In this document: positions 1 through 9,931 of the stretch, piece by piece
Numbering within the stretch: position 1 is the stretch's first letter
How the letters are laid out: every line of letters starts with the position of its first letter
UHGV virus genome: UHGV-0180488
Direction: 5' to 3' (one strand)
Source of the DNA: a virus
DNA: 10,275 bases
The notes under the pieces: generated by a model
Told to the model about the DNA's origin: nothing
The model's input: the letters and a program-made list of their open reading frames with translations, nothing else
Database searches by the model: none
Position numbers and translations under genes: made by a program

Positions 1-173
1 ATGCCAATAAGCGTACCGCGCTAAACAGTGCGCTGCTATTTCTACGCCGTAACGGTATACAGGTATATGATTCTCCCGTGCTGGTGGAACTTGCGGTGGG
101 GGCCGCAACTGGTGAAATCCCCGTATCTTCAGTAGCGGAAAAACTACGTGAATTATTTGGTTCCAATATTTGA
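1..173 (+). CDS. doc: Doc toxin (Fic-fold kinase of the phd-doc addiction module), 3' end only; 5' part lies outside the window
   Basis: Frame beginning at nt 3 translates to ...ANKRTALNSALLFLRRNGIQVYDSPVLVELAVGAATGEIPVSSVAEKLRELFGSNI and stops at TGA 171-173. This matches my recollection of the C-terminal half of phage P1 Doc almost residue for residue, including the NKR end of the Fic/Doc motif. Not in the supplied ORF track because it has no start codon in the window. Confidence 0.75.
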   Translation, partial: ANKRTALNSALLFLRRNGIQVYDSPVLVELAVGAATGEIPVSSVAEKLRELFGSNI

Positions 174-176
174 AAA

Positions 177-202
177 GAAGCCCGCTCAACCAGGCGGGCT
201 TC
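177..202 (-). terminator. Intrinsic terminator hairpin closing the minus-strand accessory operon (may also serve doc)
   Basis: Perfect 9-bp stem GAAGCCCGC (177-185) / GCGGGCTTC (194-202) with an 8-nt loop. On the minus strand the stem is followed directly by TTTTCAA. It lies 55 nt downstream of the 268-aa ORF stop and 4 nt after the doc stop. Confidence 0.55.
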
Positions 203-256
203 CTACTATCACTCAATGATTTTTTCTGCTGTCAGCCAGCTAATTCGGTGATGTTT

Positions 257-1063
257 TTAGGCGTCAGCATCAGCATCCTCCGCTACCTCTGCTTCCACAT
301 CAGCCACGGCTTCATCGGACGGTTCTTCTTTGGCCTGATCTGCAATCGCCGCACGGCATTTCGCCCTGGCTGTAGCGATTGCTTCAGCTCGCACATCATC
401 AGGAATCGTTGACGTGATATACATATCCAGTTCTTCGGCGCGGAACACTGTTTGGTCCAGATATTCGCGTAGCATCCAGGTAAATTCGAAATCACACGCG
501 ATAATCTCTGCGCTACCTTCCGCACCATTAGGGAAGTGGATAAACGCTTGTTTGGCTAAACCAATAACACGACATGCGGTTGCCAAAACAGCGACAACCA
601 GGTTTACATTTTCACACGCTACGGGCTGATTAACGCCGGAGATTACTCCATTTAACTGTCGGTTATATGGAAGGTAGTTTGAGATGCGTTCTACGCGCCA
701 TGTGCCAGTCAGGCTGCCATTTCTAAAGATGATTGGGGTAACGGACAGCCCAAGCTCGCGGATAAGTCGTTGCGCTATAGCATGATCATTAAACAGGTCC
801 AATGCTACACATTCGAAAGACTGTGCAAGGGTAAACAGTTCTTCCAGAGAGTAGTCTTTTCCTCTGGCTGTAATATGACGACGAGCGCCGTTATCTGCAT
901 CGCTCCATATAGCTACGCCATGCTCTTCATTCAGTTCTTCATTAAAGCCGAGATACGTCATGATAGTGCGTTCAATCGTGTCAAACGGCAGTGACATGTC
1001 GGCGTTAACAGCCACCAGCAGGCCATTACGCAAGCGGTATTGAATTGCTTTAGTATTTTCCAC
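257..1063 (-). CDS. Hypothetical protein, 268 aa, with a poly-acidic C-terminal tail
   Basis: Long ORF with a GTG start preceded by GGTGGAG 9 nt upstream; its start is 6 nt after the stop of the upstream gene. C-terminus EEPSDEAVADVEAEVAEDADADA. I recognise no catalytic motif. Confidence 0.7.
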   Translation of the reverse strand: MENTKAIQYRLRNGLLVAVNADMSLPFDTIERTIMTYLGFNEELNEEHGVAIWSDADNGARRHITARGKDYSLEELFTLAQSFECVALDLFNDHAIAQRLIRELGLSVTPIIFRNGSLTGTWRVERISNYLPYNRQLNGVISGVNQPVACENVNLVVAVLATACRVIGLAKQAFIHFPNGAEGSAEIIACDFEFTWMLREYLDQTVFRAEELDMYITSTIPDDVRAEAIATARAKCRAAIADQAKEEPSDEAVADVEAEVAEDADADA

Positions 1064-1069
1064 GTTAAA

Positions 1070-1738
1070 TCACTCCACCACAAACCAGTCACATGCCAGT
1101 AAGTCGCCTACAGAAGGAACCCACGGAACAACTACACCTTGTGCATTTTTTAAGGCGAAATAAGCACCATACGGAACGAGGTCGCCGGGGAAATATCCCT
1201 TAATGGCTTCCATTCGTGCCGGGTACTGTCCTTCAGGAACCAGCCAGCAGAATTGGTTTTCGCCGTTCCACCCGCGCCGGGCAACTTTCTTGCCATCCTT
1301 CAGCCACATCAGCGCGTCAGAAAAGTCGGCTGCTTCAAGGTCGATTTCTTCTTGTTTGGTAATGATGCCACCGGCAGCAATAGTTACGTCCCTGGCTGTA
1401 ATGAATGTCACACCATTGTGATCAATGCTGAGCGATACCCCATTTTCGAAGAAGTCGTTAGTCCGACTAAAGCCTTCTTCAAATGTTTTTTCTGGTGAAT
1501 AGGACAGACAACCATCTTGATCAACGAGCAGATACCCGCCAATCTCTGGTCTGTATTTTTGTAGAAACATTGCATCAACACGAACCGTTACGCCTTTTGG
1601 CTCAGTGACTGTGATATCACCCCAAAGAGTAAATGTGCCAATCAGATTGATCTTTTTGATTTTCGATGCGCGAATGATTCCGTGGTGTTTGTACTTAGGG
1701 AGCGTCTTTAAAAGCTCTTTCGTTGCTATGTTGTCCAT
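1070..1738 (-). CDS. Hypothetical two-domain protein, 222 aa: unknown N-terminal domain fused to a C-terminal DUF2829 (Tad2-like) domain
   Basis: ATG at 1738-1736 preceded by GGGGAAAG. The C-terminal ~84 aa (approx. nt 1070-1324), FSDALMWLKDGKKVARRGWNG...VVPWVPSVGDLLACDWFVVE, fits the DUF2829 pattern as I recall it (G-K-K-V-x-R-x-G-W-N-G near the start, P-W-x-P-S-x-x-D-L-L-A-x-D-W at the end). The N-terminal ~138 aa has no motif I recognise. Confidence 0.8.
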   Translation of the reverse strand: MDNIATKELLKTLPKYKHHGIIRASKIKKINLIGTFTLWGDITVTEPKGVTVRVDAMFLQKYRPEIGGYLLVDQDGCLSYSPEKTFEEGFSRTNDFFENGVSLSIDHNGVTFITARDVTIAAGGIITKQEEIDLEAADFSDALMWLKDGKKVARRGWNGENQFCWLVPEGQYPARMEAIKGYFPGDLVPYGAYFALKNAQGVVVPWVPSVGDLLACDWFVVE

Positions 1739-1800
1739 AGTCTTTCCCCTGCTTAAAACTTTTCGTACTTATGCGGTTGGCGCTTGATTTCAAAGTGGTC

Positions 1801-2247
1801 TTACGATGTGCTACCAAAGCCACCAGCACCACGTTCCGTTTCGTTGAGTTCTTCAGCCTCGACTAGTGAGACTTGTTCAACACGCTCAAAAATGCCTTGC
1901 ATGACAGCCATTCCAGGCTTGAGACAAACGCCTTCCCCGCCGGGATCAGTAATTAGTTTTGCCATGATTTCGCCGCGATAATCGGAGTCGATAATTCCTA
2001 CGCAGTTAGCCAGGCGAGTATGTTTTTTGCAGCCCAATCCGGATCGCGGATAGAGTTTCAGACACCAGCCGGGCGGGATCTCCATAGCCAGTCCGGTATA
2101 CACCCACCAGCTTGAGGAAATTGCACCATTGCTATCGACGCATGGTGTTATTTCAACAGCCTCAAAATCCATTGCTGCCGATCCTGCGGTGGCATAGAAC
2201 GGCAGTTTTGCACCAGGATGCAGGCGCTTCACTTTTACGTTAATCAT
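1801..2247 (-). CDS. dut: dUTP diphosphatase (trimeric dUTPase), 148 aa
   Basis: From the internal ATG at 2247-2245: MINVKVKRLHPGAKLPFYATAGSAAMDF...LYPRSGLGCKK...GIIDSDYRGEI...RGAGGFGSTS, which carries the conserved dUTPase motifs (RSG, G-x-ID-x-DYRGE, C-terminal R-G-x-GGFGS). The 249-aa track ORF 1801..2550 is an upstream extension that overlaps the preceding gene. Start is 2 nt after the stop of the 163-aa ORF. Confidence 0.9.
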   Translation of the reverse strand: MINVKVKRLHPGAKLPFYATAGSAAMDFEAVEITPCVDSNGAISSSWWVYTGLAMEIPPGWCLKLYPRSGLGCKKHTRLANCVGIIDSDYRGEIMAKLITDPGGEGVCLKPGMAVMQGIFERVEQVSLVEAEELNETERGAGGFGSTS

Positions 2248-2731
2248 GCTTCTTTGCTCTTTTGGTGAAGGTGTAAATTCGACGTTTAATATGCGGGGCA
2301 GTCGGTACGGATACGTTTGTGGATTCGATAATGCCTTGCTCTTCAAGAGAGCGAACGGCACGCAGGAACTGAGACGCATCGCCGCCACCGGACAGCCAGA
2401 ATTTACGGGCGTAAATGCTGCCGTTACGGATAATTTCAGCAACGACACGAGACTGGGTTTGTGTTTCACGATAGGCAAACAGTTGCCGGGCTTCTTCCGG
2501 CGTAATAGCCAGTTGATAGCCTTTCCCCTTATGGGCGCGAAGAAAACCAAACGACACCAGGTGTTTTAGTTCCCTGCGCGTAGTCTCATAACCGTATTCC
2601 TGTATCTGGAGATTGAGATCGGCGGGCTTTAGCCATGCTTCCGGCGACTCAGTAAGAAGCACCAGCAACTTACCGGATAGCTCAGGGGAGGAAGACGGGT
2701 AACAGTTAAGAGATGGGTAATAGTGTTTCAT
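2240..2731 (-). CDS. Hypothetical protein, 163 aa, probably two winged-helix-like DNA-binding modules
   Basis: ATG at 2731-2729 with AAGGGGG 6 nt upstream, overlapping the stop of the upstream 114-aa ORF (ATGA). The pattern of hydrophobic helices followed by G-K-G-Y and basic stretches (FGFLRAHKGKGYQL; IYARKFWLSGGG) suggests wHTH folds. This is inference, not a motif match. Confidence 0.7.
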   Translation of the reverse strand: MKHYYPSLNCYPSSSPELSGKLLVLLTESPEAWLKPADLNLQIQEYGYETTRRELKHLVSFGFLRAHKGKGYQLAITPEEARQLFAYRETQTQSRVVAEIIRNGSIYARKFWLSGGGDASQFLRAVRSLEEQGIIESTNVSVPTAPHIKRRIYTFTKRAKKHD

Positions 2732-3072
2732 TTGCGCCCCCTTACTGGATAATGAGAGCGGGCATCAACCGGAGCAATGAATCCGGTTGTAGGGCGGGAA
2801 AATACGAGATCAATCTTCTCGGTCATGGCGCGATAGTTTTCCTGATAGTGGGCCAGGAGTTTTTCAGCAGCAATGACGGTTACTCGCCGGACGTAGCTTT
2901 CAGCTTCGCCCAGGTTTGACCATTTCTTTTCGAGGGTAAGTACAGGTACGGTCTCAAGCCCTGTCATGATTCCAAACACCACGACAGCCTCGCCGCGCTT
3001 AACGCCAGCAGCAAAGGTTACGGTGTAACCGTCAACCGTGAAACGCCTTGATTCCGTGATACGACTCTGCAA
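2728..3072 (-). CDS. Hypothetical protein, 114 aa if the TTG start is used; first gene of the accessory operon
   Basis: ORF in the gap between dre and the 163-aa gene. The only plausible start is TTG at 3072-3070, preceded by CTGGGGG; an internal ATG at residue 36 would give 79 aa. Its stop overlaps the next gene's start. Confidence 0.5.
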   Translation of the reverse strand: MQSRITESRRFTVDGYTVTFAAGVKRGEAVVVFGIMTGLETVPVLTLEKKWSNLGEAESYVRRVTVIAAEKLLAHYQENYRAMTEKIDLVFSRPTTGFIAPVDARSHYPVRGRK

Positions 3073-3128
3073 AGTACCCCCAGAAAAAACAGGCGTACTT
3101 TACAGTAAAATGCAGTGTTAAAAAAGGG

Positions 3129-3138
3129 TGTTAGAAAT
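3129..3138 (-). promoter_or_regulatory. Operator-like motif TGTTAGAAAT between the dre stop and the accessory operon
   Basis: One of five copies of the 8-mer GTTAGAAA in the window, all intergenic. It sits in the 72-bp gap upstream of the 114-aa ORF, beside a TTAACA hexamer. Confidence 0.3.
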
Positions 3139-3144
3139 TTAATC

Positions 3145-4173
3145 TCATGAATCCATGAGGCGGCTATTGGCACCTGCTGTCACACCGCCACGACGAAGAT
3201 AACGCATCAGTGTTTCGGGCTTCTTCCATGTACCTTCCTGCATAATTTCAACCAAAGACACCTGTTTTTCAGCCATATCTATGGCGGCACCAACACGCGC
3301 ACTGTGGCCTGTCCACGTCCGGTAACGGCCTTTATTGGGGGTGGCATCACTCTTACCCAGCAGCGCCCAGGCGTCACTGAAAATCTTCTCCATCGCGGGC
3401 ACGGTTAATGGCGTGGTGGTGATCCGCGCTTTGTTGCTCCGGTGTACTGGCGGGAAAAGTATCGCATCCGGGTGCTCACGTAGTCCGGACGCGTCCAGCC
3501 AGTCATTGAGAACCGCAGTTGTCCAGCGGGAGAGCACCTTATCAAGTCCGGCGGCGGTCGTGATGGTTTTGGTGTGGGATACGTGAAGCGTTACAGTGTC
3601 ACCAGTCTGTTCCAGATCGCGAACACGCACGCGGGACATTTCAGCCATACGCAACAGGGTATTGTAGGCCAGGAACAGAAAAGCCCGGTTGCGCAGATCC
3701 ACCAGCCTGTCAGAGCGGGAGAGCAGCACGTCGAGCAGTTTCAGGTCATCCCAGCGCAGGGGCACTGCCTGGCCTGTGCGTTCGCCTTTTTCGGTTGCAG
3801 CTTCGCGCCGGATGCGCCGCATCGCCAGGGATACGCTTTTGTCATCAGAGAGTTGCGGCAGTCCGCATTGTGACAACAGCATATTGAGCATGGCGTAATG
3901 CTTTTCAATGGTGGTTGAAGCCAGATCCGCATCATGCAGTTGAAGCAGGTATTCGCGGGCAGCTTCCGGGGAGATCGGAAACCACGCAAGACCACGAGCG
4001 TGGCACCATCGCGCCCAGGAGTGAAAGACCAGGCGCAGATCGCGCAGTGTATTAGGTGAGTAAGCACCCTGGTCATTAAGGAACTGCATGAAATTTTTGG
4101 CGGCTTCCTGGTACTCAGCACCAATATCACGAAGAAACATGCCAGGATTACCGGAGATAATAAGTTTACTCAT
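3145..4173 (-). CDS. dre: Cre-family tyrosine site-specific recombinase, Dre-like, 342 aa
   Basis: The translation aligns along its length with P1 Cre as I recall it (e.g. AYNTLLRMAE vs AYNTLLRIAE; GHSARVGAAIDMAEKQVSLVEIMQEGTWKKPETLMRYLR vs GHSARVGAARDMARAGVSIPEIMQAGGWTNVNIVMNYIR, with the catalytic Tyr context conserved), at roughly 40-45% identity by eye. A rox-like site rather than loxP lies 153 bp upstream, which is why I call it Dre (the Cre homologue of phage D6). ATG at 4173-4171 with AGAGGTGA upstream. Confidence 0.92.
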   Translation of the reverse strand: MSKLIISGNPGMFLRDIGAEYQEAAKNFMQFLNDQGAYSPNTLRDLRLVFHSWARWCHARGLAWFPISPEAAREYLLQLHDADLASTTIEKHYAMLNMLLSQCGLPQLSDDKSVSLAMRRIRREAATEKGERTGQAVPLRWDDLKLLDVLLSRSDRLVDLRNRAFLFLAYNTLLRMAEMSRVRVRDLEQTGDTVTLHVSHTKTITTAAGLDKVLSRWTTAVLNDWLDASGLREHPDAILFPPVHRSNKARITTTPLTVPAMEKIFSDAWALLGKSDATPNKGRYRTWTGHSARVGAAIDMAEKQVSLVEIMQEGTWKKPETLMRYLRRGGVTAGANSRLMDS

Positions 4174-4316
4174 GTAATCATTTCACCTCTATAAATTGGT
4201 GTCGCTACGCGAAAAAACAAAAAATGACAGGCTAGTTATCCGTGAGAATTTAAAATTTAAGCCCTTGATTCGAACCATGACTTTTTGAGTCTGTCAATAC
4301 TGATCGTTTGATCATT

Positions 4317-4344
4317 ATTATATACTAACTTTAAATAATGCCAA
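4317..4344 (-). promoter_or_regulatory. Putative sigma70 promoter for dre, with its -35 inside the rox-like site
   Basis: On the minus strand: -35 TTGGCA (4344-4339), 16-bp spacer, -10 TATAAT (4322-4317). Predicted start near 4310, inside the GATC pair at 4302-4305 and 4310-4313. Sequence-only prediction. Confidence 0.35.
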
Positions 4345-4569: not shown

Positions 4570-5607
4570 ATGAATAAAAGAACAATCGAGAAAGAGTACA
4601 AACAGTTCCGGTCTGTTGCTGAACGTTGGAAGGAGCTGGTGGTATCAAACTCAGTGTTCCATGACACCAGTTATAACGGAGAGGAATTCCGTCATGTTGC
4701 TTTGACACATGATCCAGACGTCTTGAAAGAAGCCGAAGAATGCCTGGTCGCCTGGAAAGCATTTGTGGACGTATGCCGCAATGCTGGTGGGAAAAAGCTG
4801 AATATCGTTGAGACAGTATATCTTCCGATCCCATTCATCATTGAGGACACGAATCAAAGTACACACATTGTCGTATCTACAGCTTCGACTACCAGAACGT
4901 TCACTCGCGAGAGTTTGCTGAAAAAGTACGATAATGTCATTAAGAAAAGTAAAAAAAGCCCTATCTTTTCTCAGGTCGTAGATGCCCTTGAAAAAGAAAG
5001 ACATTTCTTTGCAATGGAGCCGGAAGGCGAACTCTATCGCGCACGAAAAGATGACTATACCGATGTGGTGCTGACCTCTGATCTCACATCTGACAACACC
5101 CTGTCTCGCTTAAGAGTGGGTGCGCACGGGGCGCTGGTGTTCTCACGCAATAAAGAATTGAAGATCCCTGTGGTTAATAACGTAGATGAACGCCGTAGTA
5201 TTACCGTTTATTCCGGTGTGAAGCCTATCCCTTGTGGCCCGCTGGGCGATTTTAGTCTGTATCGTGTGAACGACATCACCAGGAGTCAGCCAAGCTATGT
5301 GGCTAAGGCCTATATTCTGCGTAGCATTGAGTCCAGAAACCTGAGTTTTAACAACAAAAGCCAGGCGCTTCTGAACTCTACGCCGCCTGAGATCCTCCAG
5401 GTCATTGAAAGAAAGGTGAACGCGGCGAGAGAGGCGCTTATCCGCCTGGAAAAAATGGACATGGAGTTGATTGATGTCATGATGGCATCAGGCGATGACC
5501 TGACAGGTATCCGGCTGACCGATGCACGCAAGAAATACGGCAAAGAAATTGAGGAACGATACGGATACACGTTCAATCAAACAATGTCAGCAACAAAACT
5601 TCGTTAA
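4570..5607 (+). CDS. c1: C1-like phage repressor of lysogeny, 345 aa
   Basis: Position matches the P1/D6 layout (convergent with pacB, divergent from the lox/rox-recombinase unit). Local matches to P1 C1 as I recall it: LNIVETVYLPIPFII vs LNIPKTILYPVPNIL, VNNVDERRSITVYSGVKPI vs INGEFEKAKFSLYDSIEPI, SLYRVNDI vs KIYRLADI. Overall identity is low (perhaps ~30%) and the protein is about 60 aa longer than P1 C1. Confidence 0.7.
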   Translation: MNKRTIEKEYKQFRSVAERWKELVVSNSVFHDTSYNGEEFRHVALTHDPDVLKEAEECLVAWKAFVDVCRNAGGKKLNIVETVYLPIPFIIEDTNQSTHIVVSTASTTRTFTRESLLKKYDNVIKKSKKSPIFSQVVDALEKERHFFAMEPEGELYRARKDDYTDVVLTSDLTSDNTLSRLRVGAHGALVFSRNKELKIPVVNNVDERRSITVYSGVKPIPCGPLGDFSLYRVNDITRSQPSYVAKAYILRSIESRNLSFNNKSQALLNSTPPEILQVIERKVNAAREALIRLEKMDMELIDVMMASGDDLTGIRLTDARKKYGKEIEERYGYTFNQTMSATKLR

Positions 5608-8963: not shown

Positions 8964-9356
8964 TTACCATCTGCTTAAACGAACAATATGTCTTACTTTT
9001 GCGGACCACTTCCCTTTGGTTTTGTTGACTACCGCCTGCGCCAGCCTTAACTCGCTTTCATAATCAGCCTTACGCCCATCGTTTTCCGACAGCAAATAGC
9101 CTTCAACTTGTGGTACGGTCAGATAGTCCTGATCAACATTAAGTGGTCCTGTGGGTGCTCTGAACGGCGTTAGTTGCTTTGCGTTCCAGTTAAATCGAAT
9201 ACGTACGTCACGAACGGCAAGGGTTGCATACCCATGCACGGTACTTTCGTAACCTAGTTTTGTTTCGCCTGCATGACATGACGTGATTTTGCAGTCAAGC
9301 AACTTCCAGTCCATTTCCTTAGCTTGTGCAACTGTTAGCTTCTGCTCTTCGTACAT
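8964..9356 (-). CDS. Hypothetical protein, about 130 aa
   Basis: ORF on the minus strand. I prefer the ATG at 9356-9354 (GGGAGG 7 nt upstream) to the TTG one codon earlier used in the track. The ATG overlaps the TGA of the upstream gene by 1 nt. Confidence 0.6.
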   Translation of the reverse strand: MYEEQKLTVAQAKEMDWKLLDCKITSCHAGETKLGYESTVHGYATLAVRDVRIRFNWNAKQLTPFRAPTGPLNVDQDYLTVPQVEGYLLSENDGRKADYESELRLAQAVVNKTKGKWSAKVRHIVRLSRW

Positions 9357-9931
9357 CAAAATGCCTCCCAGTCAGTTGCCATAATGTCTACGCTGCTGGC
9401 AAACCAGTCAGAACGTGCTTGCAAAGCACCATCCATCATTACCAGACGTGGAAGCACGGAGACTTTGACGCCCTTTTGCACGTTGAATATTTCTTCCGGA
9501 AGAAAGCTAACCATCTTGTCCTTACTTTCAATGCAGCCGGGTTCAAGTGATATGTACTGTCCTTTAGGCCAGGATTTTCGGCGTGCGTCTAATCCGTTCA
9601 TTAACCAGTGGATTGCGACAGAAAAAGGAATGTTTGCTTTGGCAATGGACAGTCCACCAGCGACAGCCTGTTTATGAAACTTGAGGAGTTTTACAGCGGC
9701 CTCGGCAAGCGCAACATAAGGTTCTGGATGGACTTCGGTAAGGCTGCATCCACGAACTGTTACTGTCACAGCATGGGAATCGCCTTCTGATGCCGTTTCG
9801 ATGTTGACCCCTTTGTTTGACAGTGCGTGATACAAAGCGTCACCCATGCATGACCAGCGTTCATTGCGTCCAATGAACTCACTCAGGATGCGATCCTGCT
9901 CTGTATACGTTGCATTAGTCAAAACAGTCAT
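9356..9931 (-). CDS. Hypothetical protein, 191 aa
   Basis: ORF with a strong ribosome-binding site (AAAGGAGAGG before the ATG at 9931-9929), coupled to the next gene. No motif recognised. Confidence 0.65.
   Translation of the reverse strand: MTVLTNATYTEQDRILSEFIGRNERWSCMGDALYHALSNKGVNIETASEGDSHAVTVTVRGCSLTEVHPEPYVALAEAAVKLLKFHKQAVAGGLSIAKANIPFSVAIHWLMNGLDARRKSWPKGQYISLEPGCIESKDKMVSFLPEEIFNVQKGVKVSVLPRLVMMDGALQARSDWFASSVDIMATDWEAF

Follow-up and report, generated by a model that had tools for sequence, protein, structure and literature searches.

The window analysed here is a 10,275-nucleotide stretch of the viral genome UHGV-0180488, the whole of which is a segment of a D6/P1-type phage-plasmid. 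Positions 1-4341 share 84% identity with phage D6, and the full length shares about 94% identity with 76-80 kb plasmids of Shigella dysenteriae and Escherichia coli. Its gene content includes a doc fragment, a Cre-like recombinase, a C1-like repressor, pacA/pacB and lpa. The subject of this analysis is the Tad2-like gene on the minus strand, whose open reading frame (ORF) runs from an ATG at 1738 to a stop codon at 1070-1072. Its product joins an N-terminal domain with an oligonucleotide/oligosaccharide-binding (OB) fold, through a linker, to a C-terminal domain of the Tad2 (DUF2829) family. The gene and its parts are given below in window coordinates; model confidence is expressed as the predicted local distance difference test (pLDDT), and ADPR stands for ADP-ribose.

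1070..1738, minus strand: complete coding sequence of the Tad2-like gene (222 amino acids plus stop), with OB-like domain, linker and Tad2 domain; from the ORF list and translation
1073..1339, minus strand: Tad2-like domain, residues 134-222 (Pfam envelope 138-221); Pfam PF11195
1103..1123, minus strand: C-terminal pocket segment W206-V-P-S209-V-G211-D212; aligns with SPO1 W73/S76/T78/D79, with W, S and D kept
1172..1240, minus strand: insertion (residues 167-189) that separates β2 from the following core strand; alignable with that of MoTad2 apart from one one-residue gap
1262..1270, minus strand: W157-N158-G159, the β1-β2 loop motif of the ADPR-signal pocket; aligns with SPO1 W25/N26 and HgmTad2 W21/N22/G23
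1340..1459, minus strand: β-rich linker of low confidence, residues 94-133; pLDDT below 50, two short predicted strands
1460..1708, minus strand: N-terminal Dec-like domain with an OB fold, residues 11-93, from a large phage family that lacks annotation; structure prediction and profile comparison
1745..1750, minus strand: Shine-Dalgarno-like AGGGGA, 6 bases upstream of the ATG of the Tad2-like gene; read from the sequence

The Tad2 domain and its ligand pocket

The original prediction placed a DUF2829 (Tad2) domain at the C-terminus, and the profile search bears this out. Pfam PF11195 matches residues 138-221 significantly (79.9 bits, cut-off 25; E=2e-22), and the match covers profile positions 2-73 of 73. 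Sequence searches against solved structures gave ModTad2, or MoTad2, from a Myroides odoratus prophage as the best match (9EIB, 8V3E; E=6e-20, about 50% identity), followed by HgmTad2/AcrIIA7 (4e-10) and SPO1 Tad2 (6e-9). The C-terminal 85-90 residues have the sequence and fold of Tad2 and keep its core pocket residues.

Structural studies of SPO1 Tad2 show that W25, N26, W73, S76 and D79 hold the ribose-diphosphate core of glycocyclic ADPR (gcADPR); the equivalent residues of HgmTad2 are W21/N22/G23 and W87/S90/D93. In a MAFFT alignment, W157, N158, G159, W206, S209 and D212 of the window protein align with these core ligand contacts. SPO1 Tad2 (gp34.65; 8SME/8SMF) and HgmTad2 (8KBI) have the same fold and the same core pocket residues as the window protein, at about 32-36% identity, but their adenine-side contacts differ.

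MoTad2 is the nearest characterised relative. It is an 89-residue single domain, whereas the window protein carries 133 additional N-terminal residues. It binds histidine-ADPR (His-ADPR, type II Thoeris) and, at a second site built by an insertion, cyclic UMP and cyclic CMP (cUMP/cCMP). At the position of SPO1 T78, MoTad2 has S and the window protein G; the binding of His-ADPR and cUMP is known for MoTad2. The insertion region forms a second pocket, for cyclic nucleotides, in both HgmTad2 and MoTad2. In the window protein this insertion (residues 167-189) is placed differently in the MAFFT alignment than in the search alignment to MoTad2, and the monomer model gives it a pLDDT below 50. The insertion of HgmTad2, which binds cyclic GG (cGG) and cyclic GMP-AMP (cGAMP), is about twice as long.

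The Tad2-like gene is already in databases as DUF2829, and an identical protein from Salmonella is held at NCBI (P0001) as a ‘DUF2829 domain-containing protein’. The two-domain architecture is likewise already grouped, as PHROG 872 (full-length match, E=4e-53). The earlier view that Tad2 proteins are normally single-domain was overstated: besides this PHROG, Tad2 fusions with Acb4 and Sequestin are published, and many viral Tad2-like proteins have 150-290 amino acids.

The OB domain, its family and its fusion partners

The N-terminal part had been described as a separate β-rich domain without a recognisable motif. This description stands: residues 1-137 have no Pfam match at E<=1 and no NCBIfam match, and an AlphaFold2 (AF2) model shows residues 11-93 as a small β-barrel with a pLDDT of about 85-90. 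The domain is not an unknown orphan, however; it is a Dec-like OB fold, and its family counts about 1,800 proteins. PHROG 11049 (function unknown) matches it at E=1e-20. Among 1.84 billion representative proteins scanned, 1,062 clusters belong to the OB family at E<=1e-3, and a profile of 50 stand-alone members finds 1,812 proteins at E<=1e-5. All 120 matches listed of these 1,812 are named ‘hypothetical’ and, save for one Sequestin fusion, have no Pfam domain. The members are mostly stand-alone proteins of 83-110 amino acids, with the highly conserved motifs LP.Y.CHK.V.A.KI and KH.P..GGY.V.Y.DGY.S.SP..FE.GY.

Besides generic OB folds, the sole solved relative of the family is the OB fold of Dec, the decoration protein of phage L (6E3C). 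The N-domain matches Dec with phmmer at E=0.058, with the family profile at E=2e-4, with Foldseek at E=8e-4 and with hhalign at 95.6% (E=1e-8). Like the window protein, Dec consists of an OB fold followed by a β-rich segment that is disordered in the monomer. In Dec, this tail is a trimeric spike and the OB fold binds the capsid, whereas in the window protein a Tad2 domain follows instead. The Dec gene adjoins terminase genes, whereas the Tad2-like gene lies outside the head cluster, between dut and isaA in the accessory run downstream of the cre-like gene. The capsid contacts of Dec (K30, Y31, Y49, Y71 and E73) are all unconserved, the aligned residues being N31, L32, R53, D75 and C77. A Dec-type decoration protein is ruled out, as capsid contacts, tail and gene place are all unlike Dec.

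The linker has a pLDDT below 50 over residues 95-135 and is kept in the D6 allele that lacks the OB domain. Against the Dec tail, residues 94-137 gave nothing at E<=100, and the search of the linker against PDB chains gave no significant match, only a VgrG β-helix at E=1.2. A Dec-like trimeric tail was rejected; the pairwise BLAST alignment that reaches the linker is carried by the OB part.

Other identities were considered for the N-domain and rejected. Lockin, TadIV-1, Sequestin and Acb4 (or Acb2/Tad1) are ruled out, with no sequence or fold match for residues 1-137; published descriptions further set the domain apart from Lockin (a hexameric cog) and TadIV-1 (a two-helix dimer). The OB homologue of Ralstonia phage GP4 is not the cement protein of that phage, which is a 157-residue immunoglobulin (Ig)-like protein from a different gene.

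The OB domain of the window allele is divergent and fast-evolving. It keeps 17 of the 23 family-conserved positions (family median 22, minimum 19), having lost K20G, Y73D, Y77C, Y90F, V22I and V71L; K20, Y73 and Y77 each show a conservation of 92% or more across the family. All 23 positions are intact in the OB-Tad2 protein of Klebsiella phage SopranoGao and in the domain of Klebsiella phage LASTA; the SJ46 allele keeps 21 and the N-domain of gp68, described below, 11.

Two further arrangements were seen in the family. In two unrelated phages, a stand-alone OB-family gene is directly followed by a homologue of the carbon storage regulator CsrA (L010, 5001-5581; GP4, L004, 2992-3491). A 449-residue viral protein consists of two to three tandem OB-family domains and has no Pfam domain (L055, 3888-5234; L056, 5551-6897).

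Fusion partners were sought by scanning 72 OB-family members of at least 130 amino acids against Pfam at E<=1e-3. Tad2 (5), Sequestin PF21825 (5), the Acb2/Tad1 hairpin (3) and Acb4 PF13876 (2) were found, and no others. Nineteen long IMG/VR frames that contain the OB domain, an independent sample, had RyR (2), Tad2 (1), Sequestin (1) and DUF4406 (1) as partners. Both domain orders exist (P0090 is Tad2 then OB), as do the triple fusions OB-Tad2-Sequestin and OB-Sequestin-Acb4. By these matches, the OB domain is tied to five unrelated families of immune-signal sponges: Tad2, Sequestin, Acb4, Acb2/Tad1 and RyR-Tad. Sequestin and Acb4 are proven sponges, RyR supplies the sponge half of RyR-Tad, and Sequestin itself was discovered through domains fused to known sponges (Tal et al.).

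The DUF4406 match (E=2.5e-28; alignment A6, loci L051-L095) is the sole recognised partner that is not a known sponge.

Published sponge-sponge fusions include Acb4-Tad2 of Pasteurella phage Pm86, Tad2-Sequestin, and the Acb4-Sequestin protein gp59 of phage Ab09. Like these, the window protein combines a Tad2 domain, a flexible linker and another small phage domain; in the published cases both halves are proven sponges, whereas here the partner is an uncharacterised OB fold. The RyR-Tad protein gp68 of Pectobacterium phage vB_PatP_CB1 has the same layout, with an N-terminal OB-like domain and a C-terminal sponge, but its sponge half is RyR-repeat-like, not Tad2, and its N-domain is shorter than that of the window protein. 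The two N-domains are homologous (hhalign 96.7%, E=3e-10); the negative control, the N-domain of the window's second DUF2829 protein (see below) against the OB family, scored 0.65%. In a 2026 preprint, no apparent activity was seen for gp68_N (1-86) by itself, and against type I Thoeris the C-domain was enough on its own.

Some stand-alone OB members adjoin Tad2, Acb4, Acb2-like or Lockin genes, and two of six looked-up contigs were suggestive. Among 60 diverse IMG/VR loci searched with our own hidden Markov models, a sponge was fused to the OB gene or lay within 6 kb of it in five, a weak signal without a background control. Neighbourhood enrichment of sponge genes at stand-alone OB genes was accordingly dropped as evidence.

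Allelic variation and the likely role of the protein

The Tad2-like gene is carried by 229 PLSDB plasmids of P1/D6 type, nearly all non-mobilisable and of 87-110 kb. It occupies the ssb/isaA interval in P1-like backbones and the dut/isaA interval in D6-like ones; in reference P1, ssb is followed directly by isaA, without the gene. D6 and Shigella plasmids carry a 146-residue allele with an in-frame deletion of nearly all of the OB domain. The D6 protein, orf114 (YP_009914791, 146 amino acids), lacks residues ~21-98, that is, all of the OB domain but its first strand. Its locus and that of J46_0048 in SJ46 are orthologous to that of the window gene, and the Tad2 domain has the same protein sequence; J46_0048 has an annotated 56-residue upstream extension and a different OB allele, with 65% identity in the OB part. 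Some E. coli plasmids carry a dut-Tad2 fusion. The original prediction spoke of variable counter-defence cargo of P1-type elements: the variability is seen in the absence from reference P1 and the shortening in D6, whereas the counter-defence role is something we infer.

Pairwise codon analysis of eight alleles gave the following ratios of nonsynonymous (dN) to synonymous (dS) substitution rates.

Tad2 part: dN/dS ~0-0.1; six of the eight alleles encode an identical protein (dS 0.03-0.24, dN=0), and a seventh differs by one residue
OB part: dN/dS ~0.4-0.5; dS ~0.6-0.7; four allelic classes
Linker: dN/dS 0.3-0.7 between allelic classes and up to ~1.1 within a class; two allelic classes

The Tad2 domain is under strong purifying selection. 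One alternative Tad2 allele has 70% identity, WKG for WNG and a short insertion. The OB, linker and Tad2 segments recombine independently of each other.

The plasmid alleles (alignment A2; window 1172-1270) vary exactly where Tad2 ligand choice is set. Three insertion lengths occur among the plasmid homologues: a short one (GSVNLHGIHVP), a medium one (the window allele) and a long one (KQGASRL...INFDSPLAP). One plasmid allele has WKG for WNG and, at the G211 position, D or A. This variation suggests a diversification of specificity.

Chimeras and annotated starts add to the variety. In the dUTPase-Tad2 chimera P0052, a deletion has fused dut to the linker's end, so the whole OB domain is gone, and P0021 combines an N-terminal phage tail-fibre repeat with an OB-Tad2 body. 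A 56-residue N-terminal extension annotated on P1 IsaA (P1 L020, 21051-22531) is the same leader that is annotated as the N-terminus of the 281-residue DUF2829 protein of SJ46 (L002, 6048-6893). Because the two share this leader, at least one of the start codons is probably mis-called. P1 IsaA is no remnant fusion of the Tad2-like gene: there is no similarity, and its extra N-terminus is the SJ46 leader.

The window protein is most likely a Tad2 sponge whose Dec-like OB module is accessory and not required for the sponge activity. It would be a Tad2-family immune-signal sponge carried as accessory cargo of a D6/P1-type phage-plasmid. By analogy with solved homologues, the Tad2 domain would form a homotetramer, and the pockets between protomers would bind an ADPR-derived alarm molecule that a TIR (Toll/interleukin-1 receptor) domain produces. 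With the alarm molecule held by the sponge, the host Thoeris effector would never be switched on. The OB domain would be an accessory module, surplus to this activity. Its dispensability is supported by the OB-less 146-residue alleles in D6 and Shigella plasmids, by the inactivity of the gp68 N-domain homologue on its own, and by the dN/dS of ~0.4-0.5 with 17 of 23 conserved positions kept.

Several points weigh against this interpretation. The published evidence for dispensability is one split experiment, on a distant homologue and with type I Thoeris only, and the OB domain is still under some constraint, its dN/dS of 0.4-0.5 lying below 1. In the Tad2 domain, the adenine/base-side contacts are unlike those of SPO1 (T78 to G211, T65 to N198, D67 to Q200, H71 to V204). 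Tad2 homologues vary widely in ligand (3'cADPR, His-ADPR, N7-cADPR, cyclic dinucleotides and cUMP/cCMP), and members with differing base-side residues bind differing ligands; for these reasons the ligand specificity does not appear callable from sequence. The MoTad2 clade, with His-ADPR and Pycsar nucleotides, is the nearest and would be the best guess. The tetramer and the ligand are both predictions from homology.

The fusion pattern raises the tentative possibility that the OB family is an unrecognised phage class of anti-signalling proteins, with some 1,800 or more members, mostly stand-alone and of about 90 residues. Its fusion to five sponge families would mark the OB domain as fusion marked Sequestin. 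The domain could be a sponge for a further signal, or a helper that benefits any sponge, for example by dampening host systems that detect sponges or by hiding a virion protein that sets off a sensor; the decoration protein Dec would then be an exapted member. A rather doubtful form of the idea is a dual sponge, in which the OB domain of the window protein is itself a ligand-binding anti-signalling module of a new sponge family and two signalling systems are neutralised, as by Acb4-Tad2 and Acb4-Sequestin. The logic by which Sequestin was found points at the OB domain: the Pfam partners in the 72 long members are all sponge families, the IMG/VR partners are mostly so, and both domain orders and triple fusions occur. 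Stand-alone members of about 90 residues are of sponge size, and some adjoin Tad2, Acb4, Acb2-like and Lockin genes. Nucleotides and oligosaccharides are the classical ligands of OB folds. Having no Pfam model, the domain would have escaped the published Pfam-based fusion screen. Set against this are the lack of apparent activity of gp68_N (1-86), the weak neighbourhood signal (5 of 60 loci), the loss of K20, Y73 and Y77 in the window allele, and the persistence of OB-less alleles in nature. The second ligand-binding module that the original prediction proposed for the N-domain is thus unproven, with the fusion pattern on one side and the inactive gp68 homologue, the OB-less alleles and the loss of 6 of 23 residues on the other.

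That loss, a dN/dS four to five times that of the Tad2 part, the in-frame deletions in D6 and Shigella plasmids and the complete removal of the domain in P0052 would also fit a decaying passenger, that is, a non-functional relic of an ancestral fusion now being lost in this clade. We regard this as unlikely: dN/dS stays below 1 (0.4-0.5) across deep divergence (dS ~0.6-0.7), none of the eight alleles has a broken reading frame, 21 of 23 positions survive in the SJ46 allele, and the AF2 model of the domain is confident. It is quite unlikely that the OB domain binds a protein surface in the manner of Dec, be it a sensor-triggering capsid or virion protein or a host factor, or that OB domain and linker build higher-order sponge assemblies. 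The only solved relative is indeed the capsid-binding OB domain of Dec, some phage records name OB-family members ‘capsid decoration protein’, the GP4 homologue sits between the portal and major capsid genes, and Thoeris triggering or escape through tail-fibre and capsid-vertex proteins is published; the linker faintly resembles VgrG-type β-helix repeats, at a non-significant E=1.2. However, conservation is lacking at all five capsid contacts of Dec, the linker is unlike the Dec trimerisation tail, the GP4 capsid (3.7 Å) contains only the major capsid protein and the Ig-like cement protein and no OB homologue, and a trimeric spike would not fit a Tad2 tetramer. Labels given to DUF2829 proteins suggest, lastly, that the protein might be no anti-Thoeris sponge but either an AcrIIA7-like anti-CRISPR or the toxin of a type I toxin-antitoxin (TA) system (‘MW1434 family’). 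AcrIIA7 chains do match the C-domain (8KBI, 4e-10; 9KZR, 8e-10), and the Prokaryotic Genome Annotation Pipeline named a Shigella plasmid homologue of the window's second DUF2829 protein ‘MW1434 family type I TA system toxin’. To our knowledge, the enterobacterial hosts of P1/D6 plasmids have no type II-A CRISPR. The MW1434 model is absent from the current NCBIfam, in which both DUF2829 proteins of the window have no match, and HgmTad2/AcrIIA7 was re-tested in published work, showing no Cas9 inhibition and acting as a sponge. This alternative is very improbable.

Tad2 sponges are a major route by which phages silence Thoeris, CBASS and Pycsar signalling, and variable, mosaic Tad2 cargo on common phage-plasmids of E. 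coli, Salmonella and Shigella suggests pressure from signalling immunity. The alleles offer natural material for structure-function studies: the OB domain is present or absent, the insertion comes in three lengths, and the pocket reads WNG or WKG. Nearly all recognisable OB fusion partners are sponge families, though Pfam-based screens are blind to the OB domain itself. If it is active, the domain would be a widespread new player in phage counter-defence, linked to a capsid decoration protein.

Gene neighbourhood and a second DUF2829 protein

The Tad2-like gene is the fifth in a same-strand run consisting of the cre-like gene, two small ORFs, dut, the Tad2-like gene and the isaA-like gene. The named neighbours are as follows.

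257..1063, minus strand: isaA-like gene, starting 6 bases past the Tad2-like stop; 47% identity to P1 IsaA; PHROG 2326 (function unknown)
1801..2247, minus strand: dUTPase gene (dut), directly upstream on the same strand; Pfam dUTPase E=4e-13 and D6 annotation
3145..4173, minus strand: Cre-like tyrosine recombinase, heading the same-strand run; Pfam Phage_integrase and SAM-like domains, D6 ‘similar to P1 cre’

The start of dut is probably M102 of the listed ORF, given the dut-Tad2 fusion P0052. A scan of the 62-nucleotide gap after dut found no promoter-like site, so the Tad2-like gene is probably co-transcribed with the genes upstream. The only strong promoter-like site lies upstream of the cre-like gene (4317-4344, minus strand). 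The isaA-like gene is always directly 3' of the Tad2-like gene, about 6 bases apart, in P1-like backbones (ssb upstream) and D6-like backbones (dut upstream) alike (loci L002 and L013-L018). Because this pairing is constant in both backbone types, the two genes look like a cassette.

Further along the window, 4570-5607 on the plus strand encodes a 345-residue protein annotated elsewhere as ‘phage repressor protein’. The NCBIfam model of P1 C1 matches it weakly, at 28.8 bits against a cut-off of 500, and by this measure the D6-type repressor appears very distant from P1 C1.

A second DUF2829/Tad2-like protein, of 191 residues, is encoded at 9356-9931 on the minus strand (Pfam E=5e-11 over residues 103-190; PHROG 7362). 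Its N-domain is a different, non-OB domain, membership of the OB family being ruled out by the hhalign score given above. The pocket of this protein is divergent, with W-P for W-N and no G, and among sequenced phages a homologue is found in D6 only, at 55% identity.
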